Shown here in pieces: positions 7,589-33,808 of a DNA stretch of 64,000 bases (the stretch's first letter is position 1; every line of letters begins with the position of its first letter). Source of the stretch: a virus; IMG/VR virus record IMGVR_UViG_3300005590_000001, positions 32,001 to 96,000 of that record; one strand, given 5' to 3'. Below the pieces are notes generated by a model that made no database searches, was not told where the DNA came from, and saw only the letters and a list, made by a program, of their open reading frames with translations. The position numbers and the translations under genes are program-made.

Positions 7589-9226
7589 TTACCAACATCC
7601 TATCCTTTCTCTAATTTCGGCGAGAGTAGTTTCATTCTGAATCTCACCATTACGAAAGACAGTTTGTAATTCATTACCAAGAGCTTCTTCTTCTTGGGTT
7701 ACATCCTCCACCAAATAGTATTTACCGTTAGTATCTTTTCTGACACACAGTAAACCTTTGGCCGACTTTTTAAATCCAGAATGTCCATCGGCACGTTTAT
7801 TTTTATTAGTCTTAGGATCTTTAAAGATGGATATAACTTGATCATTGATCACACAAGATGTGGCCTTACATGCAATGCCGAATGTATCTCGCGTAACATA
7901 CTGATATGTAAAACTGCCGAAGCCAAACACTACATTAGTACTAGCGAACTTTTGTTCAACCAGTCTCGTAATAATATTCTTAGCCTTATCATAATTAATC
8001 GAATCGCCGTAGATAAGTCCAATCTTAGGATTCAATTCTTTGTAACCCTTAGAATTAACGGTACTGCCAAAAATTTCATCAAGCACAGCAACACTACCTA
8101 TTGCTTCTTCTCTTGTAATTTCGCCATTTGCCGTCAGAAATCTACCATCGTCGGTTTGGGCACATTCTATTTGCTCGGAATATGTCATCTCATTCATTTT
8201 ACCAAATTGATAATTTGAATTATGATGTACCCTCGTAATTCTGTAACCGGCAACAATATGTCTAGGATCTCCACTGTCTGGTCTGATTACTAGCTTACCA
8301 TCCCGAGCAAGAATTTCATCTTTGAGCGCAGGTAAAAGTTTAGTTAAAACTCTCCAGTAATCATAGGTATCGCTAACTACTGACAGGATGCCTTTAGGAA
8401 ACCTCTTGAAGAGTTCTTTAAACCATTTTAGTTCGGCATCGTAACGTTCTTCTTCAGAAGTCAAGTTGTTAAAACTTGCCATTCCAATCTGCATAATAGA
8501 ATGTTCAGTTGCCGGAACGCTACCACCGACGAGTTCTTTTTCAATATCGGCACTATAAAATTCTTCTAGGAATTCAATACCGGGAATCGTATCAGTACCA
8601 TAAAAACTTAGAAGATGTGCGGCACCACTAGCACCGGCAGCTTCCATACCAAACAAACCACGCATAGAAAAATCATGACCTTGCCAAGGTACAAAGTTTG
8701 GATCGCCAGTTGCTTCGGCAAATTCATTTAACATTTGTCGAATATGATTAGCAGTAGTAGCTGAAGTCATAGGACCCCAAACAACATTTTGTTCAATGGT
8801 TTCTAAGTATCCCGGCAACCACGGAAAATCTTTATGAGTACTAACCATAGTGGTGAATGGAACTTTAGTCGGACACTTAGATCCTTCTGGCAGTGCTTTA
8901 ATATGGATCGGTAGATAACCAAGTTTGTGTAATTGCCGCAAATTATCAATAGGGTAATCGATTTCTTCTACACCAAGACAATGCTTAAGGATTCTACTAA
9001 ATCTATTGACGGCGTCGTTTTCATCAAGATCGAAGAAGTATTTGTTCCAATAATCTATTAAGTAGTGTTTAATGAAATATTGTAGGCCGAAAACTACAAC
9101 CTCATCTACATTTTCAACTCGCGAATTACGTGCTGTTGTGTTATTGTATACTTTGGTAACTCCATCAGCTACCATTTTAGGATGGAGACACTTATAAAAG
9201 TCTGCCGCACTAAGAGCGCTTTTCAT
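7589..9226 (-). CDS. nadV: nicotinamide phosphoribosyltransferase family (Nampt/Namat-like)
   Basis: DFYK, HDFSMRG, GTDT, PATEHS, SVVSDTYD, IRPDSGDP, GDSI, KKSAKG. Confidence 0.93.
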   Translation of the reverse strand: MKSALSAADFYKCLHPKMVADGVTKVYNNTTARNSRVENVDEVVVFGLQYFIKHYLIDYWNKYFFDLDENDAVNRFSRILKHCLGVEEIDYPIDNLRQLHKLGYLPIHIKALPEGSKCPTKVPFTTMVSTHKDFPWLPGYLETIEQNVVWGPMTSATTANHIRQMLNEFAEATGDPNFVPWQGHDFSMRGLFGMEAAGASGAAHLLSFYGTDTIPGIEFLEEFYSADIEKELVGGSVPATEHSIMQIGMASFNNLTSEEERYDAELKWFKELFKRFPKGILSVVSDTYDYWRVLTKLLPALKDEILARDGKLVIRPDSGDPRHIVAGYRITRVHHNSNYQFGKMNEMTYSEQIECAQTDDGRFLTANGEITREEAIGSVAVLDEIFGSTVNSKGYKELNPKIGLIYGDSINYDKAKNIITRLVEQKFASTNVVFGFGSFTYQYVTRDTFGIACKATSCVINDQVISIFKDPKTNKNKRADGHSGFKKSAKGLLCVRKDTNGKYYLVEDVTQEEEALGNELQTVFRNGEIQNETTLAEIRERIGCW

Positions 9227-11981: not shown

Positions 11982-12647
11982 ATGAAATATACAAAAGAAT
12001 TATTAGAACCAATTGTTCGAGAATGCACATCTATAAGACAAGTTTTACAGAGACTAGGACTCAAAGAAACTGGCGGAAATTATTCAAATATTGGAAAAAG
12101 AATAGATAAACATGGTATTGATCGATCTCATTTTACTGGACAGGGACATATGAAGGGTAAAAAAGCATTAAATAGAAAATCAACTAAATATTACTTAGAT
12201 AATAAAGCTCATATACACTCCAATGCATTACGTTTACGATTACTTAACGAAGGATATTTCGAACACCAATGCCAAGGATGTGGTGCAAAAGAGTGGAGGG
12301 GTGATTCTATACCTCTAGAATTACACCATATTGATTGTAACCATCACAATAATAGCTTAGATAACTTAATGATTTTATGCCCAAATTGTCACAAATATGA
12401 ACATGATCAATTAAAAAAGAAATCTAAAAACCCTAAACATAAAAAAAAATGTAAAGACTGCACTGAGCAAATAAGAAAAGAGTCGTTGAGATGTAGATCA
12501 TGTGCGTCAAAATTACGACCGACTAAAATTAATTGGCCAGATACCAAATCTTTAAAGAAAATGGTATCTGAAACCAATTATTCTGTAGTTGCAAGATCTT
12601 TAAAAGTTTCTGATAACGCAATTAGAAAACGATTGAGAAATCATTAA
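11982..12647 (+). CDS. HNH homing-type endonuclease (antisense to surrounding genes)
   Basis: CQGC...LELHHID.NHHNN.LDNL.ILCPNCH; C-terminal HTH VSDNAIRK. Confidence 0.88.
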   Translation: MKYTKELLEPIVRECTSIRQVLQRLGLKETGGNYSNIGKRIDKHGIDRSHFTGQGHMKGKKALNRKSTKYYLDNKAHIHSNALRLRLLNEGYFEHQCQGCGAKEWRGDSIPLELHHIDCNHHNNSLDNLMILCPNCHKYEHDQLKKKSKNPKHKKKCKDCTEQIRKESLRCRSCASKLRPTKINWPDTKSLKKMVSETNYSVVARSLKVSDNAIRKRLRNH

Positions 12648-20678: not shown

Positions 20679-21825
20679 TTATTTTTAAAAAGTTTTCTAT
20701 CCACCCTTCTCTCCAAAGCCTCATACTTTTTTTCTATTTGAAATATAATGCTGAGAATTTGTGCCAACATCAGAAAGATTATACCCGGCCACATATGGTA
20801 TGGATATTTATCTGTGGATATTATTAGACTAATTCCACCAATAATTAGTAGAAGGATCCAAATATTTTTCATCATTGATATACAATCCACGCCATATACG
20901 GCGGACTTGCCAAATTACATAGAGGATGAAGATAGATACAAAGATATAAGTATCAATTTCCATCCTCGTGAAATTTGTGAACATTAAGAATTTCATACTG
21001 TTGCTGTTTCAAAGATTGAATGATGGCCTGTACTTGCGGCCCTCTGCAAATTTTAGCTCCGTAAGAATAATCTTCGAAGTCTTCATAGTAAATGTGTTCT
21101 CGATATGAGATTACGTAGAGAATCTTTTCATCGTCCATTTTCTTCAGACTCAGTTATTGTTTCTTCATCAAGTTGGATCCATTCAAAATGACTGGTAGTG
21201 GGATTATATCGGCCGACTCCAGCTTCTACAGCGTCTATTTCCCAAAGATCATTATTGATCGATAATGAAATATTACATACTATAAACCAGAATAAACTAG
21301 ATAAAAGTACTCCAAGTTCGAAATCTTGATCACGCATCTTCAGAATCTTCCTCAAAAAGAAAGTAACGAATCTTGTAAGCACCGAGATGAATATTTTCGG
21401 CTAAATATTTATCGGCGACTTCTTCGCAGTTAAAGGTTAGGAATTCATTTTTGTGTTCCAGAGGAATAACGACGGCGAATTGCTCTTCGTTCATAATAGA
21501 ATCCTTTTGGTTTGATAATATACGCATACTAGTCTACCACATTATAGTTTTCAAACATAAATATTATTCCAATTGCATCTATGAGAATATCCTAACATTC
21601 TCAAGTACCAAGGAATTTCAGGTAAATCTTCTGGTGTCAATCCCGGTTCCCAAAAATGGCAGTTATAAACACCCGGTATTCTAGTACCTCTATAATCACG
21701 GGCCTCTTCATTAAGACACCAAAGTGTTACTGCACCACGCAAAAAGAAACAGTCTGAACATGACTTCTTTTCAGCATCTGGTTTTTTAGATTCATGAATA
21801 AATCTTTGCATTGTTTACTCCAAAG

Positions 21826-22291
21826 TAGCACCGGTGGGAGTCGAACCCACATGGGGTATTCACCCCCTCAGATTTTAAGTCTGCATACCACTACAGTTTT
21901 CACTGCCTAAGTTTTTTACCCCTTTAATTCCTGCTGAACTTATCCGAGTTTCTATGAACTGAATCATATTCAGGGGTACAGGGTTTAGTTTGTGGTCTGG
22001 ACTATCCCTTTAGCTTTGCCTAAGCTTTAGCTAGGTGATTATAGTCTCTGCACCTTCTGTGTTGTCTGGCTTTATTTATCCCACTTGAATAAGTACCAGC
22101 TTAGGGTGTATCTAGAATTCCAACACAGCTTGGCTCAGGGTTCCCATACGAGTTAGCATAAAGCTAAGTCATCCTATTTGCTCACGCTCAAGGTTTTCTT
22201 CACGCTTAGGGTTCTCTGAATTTACACCATTTAGACATGGCTTTCACCATGAATGCACCTTATGATGCGTATGCCGTTCCGCCACGATGCC
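21826..22291 (-). tRNA. trnL: tRNA-Leu(UAA), intron-containing (exons 22291-22265 and 21883-21826)
   Basis: Spliced: GGCATCGTGGCGGAACGGCATACGCAT|CAGACTTAAAATCTGA-GGGGGTGAATACCCCA-TGTGGGTTCGACTCCCACCGGTGCTA, a full Leu cloverleaf with long variable arm. Confidence 0.88.
21884..22264 (-). mobile_element. group I self-splicing intron (381 nt, no ORF)
   Basis: P1: exon GCAU pairs with intron GUGC (U.G at the splice site); core GCAGAGACUA (22051-22042) and GAUAGUCC (P7 partner, ~22006-21999); terminal G. Confidence 0.85.
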
Positions 22292-23126
22292 ATTAATTAC
22301 TTATTTTCATTCTTTTTAATATCAACCATAGTATCTCCAAGCAATATCAATACTGCTACAGTAGTTGCACCACACAATAATCCAGATACAATACAGCCTG
22401 TTCCCGCAACTTCAGGATCTATTGCTAAGGTTTTTACTAAATATTCATGTAAGAAGGTTAAACCTAAAACAACAAATGGAAGGACCATAATAGATCCAAT
22501 CATTAACATTCGAATAAATATTTTCATACAGACTCCCCAAAAAGTTTCTCACAATCTTCAAAAGTAACTCTGATAGGATTTTTCTTGACCAGAGAAATCT
22601 CTACAAAAGTTCGATGAATTTTCTTAATCTTGATTTTACCGTACTCACTATGCTGTGCAATGGTACCAACTTTAAGTACTGGTGTTTGTGTTTTCATGAT
22701 AATGATATCAATCCCAATTCTAAAACCTCGAAACCTAAATCTGTCAACAGTTTTGATTGTTTTTCTAAATTGTCACACGGCCAATCTGGTTGATATGAAT
22801 ATACAGCTTCCATATCTTCGCTAAAATCTGGTATATCTAATCCTTCACCAGATTCATCTAAGTATCCATGTTTATCCCAAAATTCTTTTTTGGTTATACA
22901 CCAAGACAAAGTTTTCTTATCGCTTTTCATAATACCACCGCCGGGTTTCATTTCCCAGTGAGCGTCATCAATGAAAGGTAGGGCAACGAATCCTTCAAAG
23001 GGTAGCTTTTTTTCTCTTGCAGATTCAAATGCGGCTTTGACCCAACTTACAGCCTCTTTTGGAATACGTTCGGCACGAAGAGAGAATCCTTCCAACTCTT
23101 CGTACCAATCTTCAAACGTATCGTAC

Positions 23127-26283: not shown

Positions 26284-26604
26284 TTAGCGGGCTTCTACGG
26301 AGCCTTGACTTCTCTCAAGAATTTCTTTTACTTTTTGTTTACGTTCTTTATGTTCTTTTTCTTTCTTATCATAAAGCTCATATATTGGTGTAATGTCATC
26401 AAAAACTTGTTCACACTTCAAACAGACCCTAATGGAATAAAATTTACTTGAAGTAAAAAAATCTGGTCTTAGTGATTTTTGACCCCTTTTTTCAAAACAA
26501 TCACACTCTATTTCGTAGAGAGACATAGTTTTGATAAGATAAAAATCATGTTGACACTCATCTGATTTGAAGAAACTTTTTATCCATGTAAAAAACTTAT
26601 TCAT
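26284..26604 (-). CDS. hypothetical protein
   Basis: ORF; C.H...VCLKC. Confidence 0.5.
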   Translation of the reverse strand: MNKFFTWIKSFFKSDECQHDFYLIKTMSLYEIECDCFEKRGQKSLRPDFFTSSKFYSIRVCLKCEQVFDDITPIYELYDKKEKEHKERKQKVKEILERSQGSVEAR

Positions 26605-28619
26605 GATATCTCCTGAATTTCTTTTTCAAACAGAATTCTATCTCTAACCTTCATCAGACAAAGCCCAAGCAAATTTTTACCCAACCACTTATCTGGGTCA
26701 CCTATCCTAGGATCATCGGCAGATAAACCAACACCCCAAATCTTATCATAAGGACTAGCTTCAATCAATACTGTATCATTAGTTGCTAGCAATCTTTCTT
26801 TAAGATCCTCATTCTGATTAAATTTCAACATATTAATGGAATTAACTATTTTTTTGTTAGATACACTCCACATATATTCATTGAAATTTTTTACCTGTCT
26901 TCCTAATTTTTTAACTTCATTTGGATCGTGTGTCTTTAAAATTCTTTCTTTAATTTGATGATCATCAAACAAATTTGCTTTCATAAACATCATAGCTTGT
27001 TCAGCAGATGTAAATTTACATTCCTCTCCACCAAGCATCATTTTAAAATTACATCTAAACCATTGACTTAAAAATCCATATTCTTCATTTACTCTGAAAA
27101 ATGTAATAAATTTTTTACCATTCCTCAAAGCAGATTTCATTCTTTTTTCTGTTTTCTTAAAGGTGTTATTTTTATTATACTTATCTCTTATATTTCCAAT
27201 TTCTACCTTAAGTATTTTTTCTTCCGGAGTCATTGTAAGAGATTTATAAAGACCCATACCATCTTTTATCAATATATCCTTATTGATATCATATTTGCTC
27301 AATTGAACACGATATACATGATCTAAAGCTTTACCCATTTCTGGTCCCGGCTTAGCACCAGCTTTAATCAAATCATAACCACTGACTTTTCGAGGCTCTT
27401 TGTCAAACAACACATTAAATTTAGACGCAGTCTCTTCTAAATTATGAATGAAGGCAACATGCTGATCATCTGGCAATTTATCACCGCGACCAAACATATC
27501 AGAGCGTACAAGCATCAACAATTCTGAAATATTTGTGCCAAACTCACTAAGTTTGAACGCTAATTTCTTAATATTTTTTGATGATAGTTTCATATTACTA
27601 TCAAGCATATGATACTTAGTTAAACCCTTAACTGGTCTAACATACATATTTGGAACACCAATCTGTTCAAAGAAATCATCAATAATATCATCGGCGATTC
27701 TTTCGTGATTGTGTGAAGCAATATGGCCTTTATGCAATTTGGTAGTTTTATACTTACCAATATCATGACACAATGCTGCAAAAAACATTTGAATACTATA
27801 ATCTGTATTAAAAATATTTCTTTGTGCAAGAATCGCATACATCATATCAACAACATGACATGTATGTGTGAAGACATCACCTTCTGGGTGATATTCTGAA
27901 TCTTGCGGCGTAAAAATCATTTGCTGAAGAGCAGGCGTATACGATAGCCAACCAGTATTATTCAAAAATTGCAATGCTCGACTCGGTTGAATAGAAGTTG
28001 CAATCTTTTTCCACTCTCCCCAGATTCTCTCTTTTGAGATTGTATAATAATCTCTATGCAGAATTTTAGAATATGTTATCAAATCTGCAGATGGTTCAAA
28101 TTGAAATCGTGCAAGAAATTGTGCCGCACGAAGAACACGCAATGGGTCTTCACAAAATTTTGCCGAAGTTGGATGCAAGATACCATCTTTAAGATTTTTT
28201 TGACCGCCGTAATGATCAATAATAGTGCCATCAAAACTCATCAACATAGAATTTATAGTAAAATCTCTACGAAGACAGGCTTCTTTTGTACTAGTATCTT
28301 TATCGGCGATTATTTTAAAATCTTTATGCGATGGTCCAGTGCTCTTTTCTCTTCTCGGCAAACTAAAATCAAATTCGCCGTCATCATTCGTCAACTTATG
28401 TACAAAAAAAGATTCGCCGTGAGAACTTACTTTACCATATTTTGACAAGGTCTCAACCAAATCTGCCGAATGAACATCATAGACCTCAACGTCCCAATCC
28501 TTTGGTTCATAACCAAGCAAAATATCTCTTACACAACCACCAGCCATAAACAATCTCGCCGAATAACCAGATTGTTTTAGCTCATTCTCAATTTTGAGAA
28601 GGGTCAAAGGAATATCCAT
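26601..28619 (-). CDS. cca: tRNA nucleotidyltransferase (CCA-adding) + HD domain + C-terminal NADAR domain
   Basis: GGCVRD..LG..PKDWD, RRDFTINS, EDPLRVLRA, ERIWGEW, HPEGDVFTHT, CHDIGK; C-terminal LSQW..SAEQAMM..KA..F..KKLGR..KF.QN..LIEASPYD.IWG.G..G.NLLG.LM.VR. Confidence 0.9.
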   Translation of the reverse strand: MDIPLTLLKIENELKQSGYSARLFMAGGCVRDILLGYEPKDWDVEVYDVHSADLVETLSKYGKVSSHGESFFVHKLTNDDGEFDFSLPRREKSTGPSHKDFKIIADKDTSTKEACLRRDFTINSMLMSFDGTIIDHYGGQKNLKDGILHPTSAKFCEDPLRVLRAAQFLARFQFEPSADLITYSKILHRDYYTISKERIWGEWKKIATSIQPSRALQFLNNTGWLSYTPALQQMIFTPQDSEYHPEGDVFTHTCHVVDMMYAILAQRNIFNTDYSIQMFFAALCHDIGKYKTTKLHKGHIASHNHERIADDIIDDFFEQIGVPNMYVRPVKGLTKYHMLDSNMKLSSKNIKKLAFKLSEFGTNISELLMLVRSDMFGRGDKLPDDQHVAFIHNLEETASKFNVLFDKEPRKVSGYDLIKAGAKPGPEMGKALDHVYRVQLSKYDINKDILIKDGMGLYKSLTMTPEEKILKVEIGNIRDKYNKNNTFKKTEKRMKSALRNGKKFITFFRVNEEYGFLSQWFRCNFKMMLGGEECKFTSAEQAMMFMKANLFDDHQIKERILKTHDPNEVKKLGRQVKNFNEYMWSVSNKKIVNSINMLKFNQNEDLKERLLATNDTVLIEASPYDKIWGVGLSADDPRIGDPDKWLGKNLLGLCLMKVRDRILFEKEIQEIS

Positions 28620-33386: not shown

Positions 33387-33458
33387 TGGGACATGAAGGA
33401 TTCGAACCTCTACCTGTAGGGTTACAGCCTAGCATGCTACCAATTACACCGATACCCC
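33387..33458 (-). tRNA. atypical tRNA-Tyr(GUA)-like, short variable loop, mismatches
   Basis: GGGGTAT/ATGTCCC acceptor, CTGTAAC loop, TTCGAAT T loop; C8, mismatched stem ends. Confidence 0.55.
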
Positions 33459-33735: not shown

Positions 33736-33808
33736 TAGCGAGTCAAGGAGTCGAACCTTGTGTACCACCTTATAAGGATGGCCCTCAAAACCGTCGAGGA
33801 CACTCGCC
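33736..33808 (-). tRNA. trnI: tRNA-Ile(UAU)
   Basis: GGCGAGT/ACTCGCT, CCATC-CTTATAA-GGTGG, CAAGG-TTCGACT-CCTTG. Confidence 0.75.

Follow-up and report, generated by a model that had tools for sequence, protein, structure and literature searches.

In the window (the whole stretch analyzed here: 64,000 nt with a G+C content of 38.6%, at bases 32001-96000 of an IMG/VR virus record that is 171,987 bp long and bears direct terminal repeats), a minus-strand gene for a phage tRNA-Leu(UAA) is split by a 381-nt group I intron between nt 27 and 28 (Table 1). The anticodon loop CUUAAAA lies uninterrupted within exon 2, whose 3' part runs from the T arm through CGGUGCU to the discriminator A, with CCA not encoded, and no ORF of 40 aa or longer was found inside the intron. 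ARAGORN reports five other tRNAs in the window and misses tRNA-Leu(UAA); Rfam at its gathering thresholds also misses both gene and intron. Since the intron interrupts the anticodon stem and not the loop, standard tRNA finders pass over the gene. Elsewhere in the window, a tRNA at 33387-33458 (minus strand) is found by Rfam (46.8 bits) and not by ARAGORN, and a tRNA-Ile(UAU) at 33736-33808 (minus strand) is called by ARAGORN and absent from the Rfam gathering list. A blastn search of the locus against isolated phages returned no match, and no close cultured relative of the phage was found (<48% amino acid identity). A nicotinamide/nicotinate phosphoribosyltransferase-like gene at 7589-9226 (minus strand; PF04095, PF18127) suggests NAD salvage by the phage.

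Table 1. Elements of the split tRNA-Leu(UAA) gene, listed along the transcript in window coordinates.
Feature	Position	Strand	Description
Exon 1	22291-22265	-	nt 1-27: acceptor 5' strand, D arm, A26, U27; reads GGCAUCGUGGCGGAACGGCAUACGCAU; ends ...ACGCAU
P1	22268-22255	-	exon G24-C25-A26-U27 (22268-22265) with guide G7-U8-G9-C10 (22258-22255); U27.G7 wobble (22265, 22258) at the 5' splice site; extended by C+1 (22264) pairing with G6 (22259); loop AUAA
Group I intron	22264-21884	-	381 nt, without ORF; starts CAUAAGGUGC, ends GGUAUG
P2 hairpin	22251-22236	-	CAUGGU-GAAA-GCCAUG, GNRA loop L2
P3 5' strand	22228-22225	-	GGUG, pairs with CACC
P4-P5 domain	22219-22135	-	P4: UCAGAG (22219-22214) with CCCUGA (22140-22135), one A.C mismatch; J4/5 AA, J5/4 AA; P5: 11-nt tetraloop-receptor motif CCUAAG (22210-22205)/UAUGG (22148-22144) plus an extension of ~50 nt
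P6 and P6a	22134-22052	-	P6 GCC/GGU; P6a CUGUGUUG/CAACACAG, perfect 8 bp; distal extension
P7 5' strand	22046-22041	-	GACUAU
P3 3' strand	22037-22034	-	CACC
P8 hairpin	22033-22011	-	UAGCU...AGCUA; pairs covary in the family
J8/7 and P7 3' strand	22010-22000	-	J8/7 AAGGG; P7 3' strand AUAGUC (22005-22000)
P9 domain	21996-21887	-	closing helix ACCAC (21996-21992)/GUGGU (21891-21887); internal hairpins, the inner one GCAGU-GAAA-ACUGU (21906-21893) bearing GNRA loop L9
Terminal (omega) G, 3' splice site	21884	-	after AU, before CAGAC
Exon 2	21883-21826	-	nt 28-73: rest of anticodon arm, long variable arm, T arm, acceptor 3' strand, discriminator A; starts CAGACUUAAAAUCUGA

The anatomy of the intron is established. 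All parts of a group I core are present, namely P3 through P8, the P3/P7 pseudoknot and J8/7; J7/3 is only AA, L2 and L9 are both GAAA, and an 11-nt receptor lies in P5, with none seen in P8. P7.1 and P7.2 are absent. In a permissive Rfam scan of positions 21500-22600, the general group I model RF00028 matches 21977-22274 on the minus strand at 36.2 bits (E 2.3e-7 for the 1.1 kb searched), a score below the gathering score of 50; that this model performs poorly on bacterial and phage tRNA introns is also stated by Williams (Williams 2020, bioRxiv 10.1101/2020.01.27.920355). The MFE z-score of the whole intron (-0.2) is uninformative. At ~180 nt longer than its compact relatives, the intron carries peripheral extensions that fold with modest stability (z -0.6 to -2.0). 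P10 comprises only 1 bp, which is not exceptional, given that P10 spans 1-3 bp throughout the relatives in all site classes.

A far stronger signal comes from a model built on phage tRNA introns. An exact core 18-mer (GCAGAGACTATAATCACC) occurs at 19 IMG/VR loci, mostly split tRNA genes, and five of these, all with introns in the anticodon loop and with the window excluded, were used to build covariance model R1. On the minus strand of the window, R1 aligns with 21880-22270 over all model positions (1-216) with 99.7 bits (E 5.7e-24), and the two ends of the match coincide exactly with those of the model, which includes 6 nt of exon 1 and 4 nt of exon 2. Over the rest of the genome R1 found no other copy. 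A second RF00028 match in the same genome, outside the window (L359; G000:C1:4486-4667, plus strand; 21 bits), is probably spurious, as it skips 110 core positions, overlaps a minus-strand ORF and is unmatched by R1.

Family membership and covariation within the family are likewise established. In a model-based alignment of 21 matches, which was fitted to R1 and thus somewhat favors the pairing figures, 96.1% of cells are paired versus 31-44% in slid controls; in 32 of the 36 pairs both partners have changed, and none of 500 shuffles reaches the observed values. Compensatory changes occur at all seven P2 pairs. The closing helix of P9 covaries (ACCAC/GUGGU, ACUAC/GUAGU, GUAAC/GUUAU), and P6 reads GCC/GGU in the window versus GCG/CGU in relatives, again a compensatory change. 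Only two modelled pairs fail in the window intron, one at the P2 base (U.U) and one in P4 (A.C); its P9 hairpin, present in the sequence, was placed in an insert by the covariance-model alignment. MAFFT alignments (A1-A4) placed P4-P6 of the window intron wrongly, and the model-based ones were used in their stead. Judged by sequence and structure, the intron is homologous to tRNA-hosted group I introns of the bacterial and phage type.

Comparison with the anticodon-loop introns of phage tRNAs (IMG/VR L003, L018, L019, L020 and L021) sharpens this picture. The core is homologous (R1, 99.7 bits), and the invariant P3, P7 and J8/7 segments are common to both, as is the ending made up of P9 hairpin, closing helix and terminal G in succession. 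The differences concern the site (27/28 in the window versus 33/34, 34/35 or 35/36), the guide (GGUGC versus GGGUC or GAG), a distinct J2/3 (UCUAAA) and the longer extensions of P5, P6 and P9, which bring the window intron to 381 nt versus ~200 nt.

The family is not confined to single tRNA genes. Four R1 matches lie in one phage tRNA cluster (L434: 1172-1391, 2492-2687, 3860-4060 and 5531-5733), and L430 and L021 contain two each; a single cluster can thus include several family introns over a few kb. Protein-coding genes of viral contigs are also split by R1 family introns (89-129 bits; L471:2719-2927, L368:7766-7967, L442, L381 and L440, also L007/L009/L016), one example having the exon context ...GGTAAA|intron|AAAGGCGC.... 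Two intron-split tRNAs with anticodon UCA (L366:577-773 and L429:4973-5191), called SeC(tca) by ARAGORN and 93-94 nt long when joined at 34/35, may be UGA-reading tRNAs.

The splice junction was located by joining each upstream U to each downstream G around the core (6105 combinations) and requiring an ARAGORN tRNA across the joint. Because the default threshold proved too permissive, with 77 solutions, it was raised; nine joins survive at 110% and a single one at 115% (-ps115), U 22265 joined to C 21883, which places the intron between nt 27 and 28. The joined exons form an 85-nt class II tRNA, called tRNA-Leu(taa) by ARAGORN, with a 7-bp acceptor stem ending in G1.U72, a D arm of sequence UGGCGGAA..GG.A.ACGC typical of tRNA-Leu, a 3-bp D stem (GCG/CGC), A26, a 5-bp anticodon stem (UCAGA/UCUGA), the 7-nt loop CUUAAAA with U33 and anticodon UAA, a long variable arm and a T arm. 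The permissive Rfam scan additionally yields a partial tRNA-like match over exon 2 (21827-21907). As intron and exon 2 both begin with CA, comparison of DNA alone leaves the junction ambiguous by 2 nt; U27|C28 is the only choice that puts a U at position -1 and a G at the end of the intron.

Uninterrupted target alleles are established as well. The exact joined sequence ACGCATCAGACTTAAAATCTG occurs without interruption in phage tRNA-Leu(UAA) genes at 87 IMG/VR loci, and the nearest of these alleles (L150 and L149) match the joined exons at 97% identity across the junction, over 37-41 nt. Two interrupted-looking tRNA-Leu(UAA) genes (L024:~12300-12361, minus strand; L066:6977-7040, plus strand) break off after the variable arm and lack any group I signal within 2 kb; they were set aside and may be truncated genes or integration scars. 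The T loops of exon 2 in L014 and L019 read AUCGUGG and AUCGUGA, versus the usual UUCGAAU of such phage tRNA-Leu genes.

No other tRNA-Leu(UAA) was found in the 172-kb genome, and TTA is its commonest Leu codon (28.5% of Leu codons in 18 long ORFs, and 49% together with TTG). Because the gene is the sole one for tRNA-Leu(UAA) and TTA the commonest Leu codon, the phage likely needs this tRNA. A 672-aa ORF at 26601-28619 (minus strand) combines the head of a CCA-adding enzyme (PF01743), an HD domain and a C-terminal NADAR domain (PF08719, E 1e-49), and lies near tRNA genes without encoded CCA.

The initial annotation had described a group I intron of 381 nt following ...ACGCAU in a tRNA-Leu(UAA) divided at 27/28, the base of the anticodon stem, with the loop intact in exon 2. 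Its class is borne out by the RF00028 and R1 scores (36.2 and 99.7 bits) together with the family covariation, and its site by the sole ARAGORN survivor of the 6105 joins and by the 97% identical uninterrupted alleles; intron, preceding exon end and loop are found as described when the minus strand is read. P1 (GCAU/GUGC), P7 (here GACUAU/AUAGUC) and the terminal G (21884) named there are all found, and the expectation that standard finders would miss the gene holds for ARAGORN and for Rfam at its gathering threshold.

How unusual the site is was gauged with a second motif (ATAGTCCAGACNACAAAC), present at no fewer than 120 IMG/VR loci, through a census of junctions by brute-force search over 135 instances. 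Among the matches listed, 65 instances fall at 34/35 (59 of them in tRNA-Leu UAA), 21 at 33/34, 6 at 35/36 and 2 at 27/28 (the window and L354); 9 are ambiguous within the loop, 2 are ghost solutions and 30 received no assignment. All of the ~105 resolved family members among the matches listed, except the 27/28 cases, thus lie in the loop (33/34, 34/35 or 35/36), and the window intron falls outside the range of loop positions, 31/32 to 38/39, that characterizes bacterial and phage tRNA introns. About two-thirds of the 30 unassigned loci were inspected; most of them lie in protein genes, are truncated or are loop-sited tRNA introns missed by the test.

Recurrence of the site is established by other scans, which place the introns of L014/L015 at 27/28 as well, for a total of three phage lineages (the window, L014/L015 and L354), and the intron of L013 at 25/26. 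L354:623-845 (plus strand) holds an intron of ~199 nt, and L014:5497-5895 (minus strand)/L015 one of ~375 nt; as these introns start with U, the 5' splice site could follow one or the other of two neighboring U residues, and ARAGORN favors the second in L354. The three lineages have in common the exon context ACGCAU|CAGACUUAAAAUCUGA and the guide GGUGC, as well as a 5' module comprising guide, P2 and J2/3 (UCUAAA). This module is 78-91% identical among the three introns versus 42-58% to other family members, and the remainder of their cores is no closer to one another than to other members. In L013 (10321-10566, plus strand; IMGVR_UViG_3300048691_000182) a family intron of 222 nt (R1, 148 bits) divides a phage tRNA-Leu(UAA) at the junction GACAU|...UAUUUG|AACAGACUU. 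As in the window, this intron interrupts the same isoacceptor outside the loop and draws its P1 (GACAU/GUGUC) from D-stem nucleotides, but it sits two nt upstream, has a different guide and a 5' module only 49% identical.

For each site the guide matches the local exon: GCAU/GUGC at 27/28, GACAU/GUGUC at 25/26, GACU/GGUC at 33/34 and CUU/GAG at 34/35. The core tree is poorly resolved; it does not group the 27/28 introns, nor is a clade rejected (p-AU 0.2), and it does not tell whether the 27/28 site arose once or repeatedly. No flanking genes are common to the 27/28 loci, which share no cassette. A metagenome scan with the pattern ACGCAT-N4-9-GGTGCATT, which was too loose, gave no true intron among the 80 matches listed, and a narrow 3'-junction pattern run on genome contigs gave four chance matches in protein genes and no bacterial example.

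The initial annotation had taken the stem position to imply an independent invasion. An unrelated invader is not what R1 indicates, for it places the intron in the family of loop-sited phage tRNA introns. The guide and 5' module differ from those of loop introns and are common to the 27/28 introns, and a tRNA intron retargeted to a new site within one family accounts for the data better than a separate origin. We consider it quite probable that the phage tRNA-Leu(UAA) is split at U27|C28 by an ORF-less group I intron from a lineage whose guide was retargeted from the anticodon loop to the stem.

Splicing would then proceed by the standard two-step group I route. In the precursor, the guide GGUGC is predicted to pair with G24-C25-A26-U27 of exon 1, forming P1 with its U27.G wobble. 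Because P1 uses these four nucleotides, the D-stem pairs G10-C25 and C11-G24 cannot coexist with it, and two D-stem pairs would be open for as long as P1 exists. Free guanosine bound at P7 would attack after U27; the terminal G would then enter the same pocket, and the 3'-OH of U27 would attack before C28. The ligated exons (...ACGCAU-CAGACUUAAAAUCUGA...) would constitute an 85-nt tRNA without CCA, which the phage CCA-adding enzyme could supply, and exon 2 would open directly with four of the five anticodon-stem pairs as a hairpin. We infer catalysis and the competition with the D stem, as well as the exact position at which the exons are ligated in vivo. We know of no test of competition between P1 and a D stem for any group I intron.

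A more speculative extension, which we regard as improbable, holds that the placement is no neutral accident: the move out of the loop makes maturation depend on the competition between P1 and the D stem and destroys a nuclease target, so that the intron would act as an immunity or timing device for the only decoder of UUA and UUG. The lost target would be the DNA and RNA of the intact D-stem/anticodon-stem region of tRNA-Leu genes, and candidate nucleases would be the free-standing HNH endonucleases scattered in the tRNA region of this phage or host anticodon-arm nucleases.

Other accounts of the locus weigh against retargeted self-splicing to different degrees. Mere chance, with unrelated tRNA-like fragments flanking DNA that is no intron, could appeal to the sub-threshold Rfam score and to nothing further; it is effectively refuted by an R1 E-value of 5.7e-24 with exact boundaries, by the unique junction of the brute-force search and by homologous split genes in other phages. 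The same low Rfam score, together with the A.C in P4, the U.U in P2, the large peripheral insertions and the weak thermodynamic signal, would suit an intron that is real by descent and has lost splicing, leaving a dead tRNA-Leu with a decaying intron. We rate this as unlikely, if deserving of some weight, given that the core helices are all intact, as are J8/7, the terminal G and the U.G wobble of P1, the exons still give a high-scoring tRNA, the gene is the sole tRNA-Leu(UAA) of a TTA-rich genome, and three divergent phages retain the site together with intact cores.

The intron might also be removed otherwise than by unaided self-splicing at U27|C28, through a protein helper (maturase or chaperone), through phage RNA-repair enzymes or at a neighboring splice site. 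The need for P1 to compete with the D stem, the 1-bp P10, the 2-nt ambiguity that comparison of DNA leaves and the presence of a CCA-adding enzyme in the phage would all be compatible with such a route. Yet only U27|C28 gives a U at -1 with a G at the intron end, an equally short P10 is widespread in the relatives, and neither an intron ORF nor a conserved neighbor gene common to the 27/28 loci was found, making this route very improbable in our estimate. Self-splicing of a retargeted tRNA intron remains the preferred reading.

Known bacterial tRNA group I introns belong to subgroup IC3 and include the tRNA-Leu(UAA) introns of Anabaena, other cyanobacteria and plastids ("Leu.3Ug"), the tRNA-Ile intron of Azoarcus, and those of tRNA-fMet and tRNA-Arg (Williams 2020; Hausner et al. 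2014, PMC3984707); all four classical tRNA intron types are IC3 (Williams 2020). With these the window intron shares a tRNA host, even the same isoacceptor as in Leu(UAA), an ORF-less compact design with P1-P9 and without P7.1/P7.2, GAAA loops L2 and L9, the 11-nt receptor in P5, U-1 and the terminal G. It differs in its phage host, in its location at 27/28 of the anticodon stem and not in the loop, and in a P1 that takes nucleotides of the D stem and nt 26 and 27, whereas the bacterial IC3 introns use nucleotides of the anticodon stem-loop. The architecture appears IC3-like, resembling the Azoarcus/Anabaena type of tRNA intron. The P4-P6 stretch of the Azoarcus intron, which we take to read CCUAAGCG...CGUAUGG...GAGCCAAGC...GAAGGUG.AGAGACUA, is strikingly similar to that of the window intron and is offered as a lead only.

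Group I introns and other interruptions outside the anticodon loop offer partial parallels. The intron of tmRNA (cited in Williams 2020), whose site is the T-loop of a tRNA-like domain, is likewise a group I intron in a tRNA-shaped RNA, by its description, though in another host RNA and position. Archaeal bulge-helix-bulge introns (PMC4090602) also occupy many tRNA positions, including stems, and are missed by gene finders, but they are cut by a protein endonuclease and joined by a ligase and contain no ribozyme core, in contrast to the complete group I core of the window intron. In phages, all group I introns known at the time of the review by Hausner et al. (2014) were in protein genes, and Devoto et al. 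(2018, bioRxiv 10.1101/356790) described "enigmatic" introns in tRNAs of Lak phages, presenting them as the first to be reported from phage tRNAs. Williams (2020) surveyed 5292 introns, all in the anticodon loop, with a method that tests eight loop positions only, so stem sites were outside its search space. No group I intron located in a tRNA stem came up in our literature search, the tRNA sites described being confined to the anticodon loop; such absence is not proof of novelty.

The 27/28 lineage and its 25/26 sister indicate that a change of guide can retarget tRNA ribozymes into stems, with P1 borrowing D-stem nucleotides. They offer a natural test case for exon structure as a constraint on group I splicing and for intron movement by guide change (reverse splicing). 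They also imply that phage tRNA inventories are systematically incomplete: at their defaults, ARAGORN and Rfam both overlook the sole tRNA-Leu(UAA) of this phage, although it serves the commonest Leu codon there. Phage tRNA group I introns, unknown in the 2014 review (PMC3984707), are common, with one core motif alone marking at least 120 IMG/VR loci.
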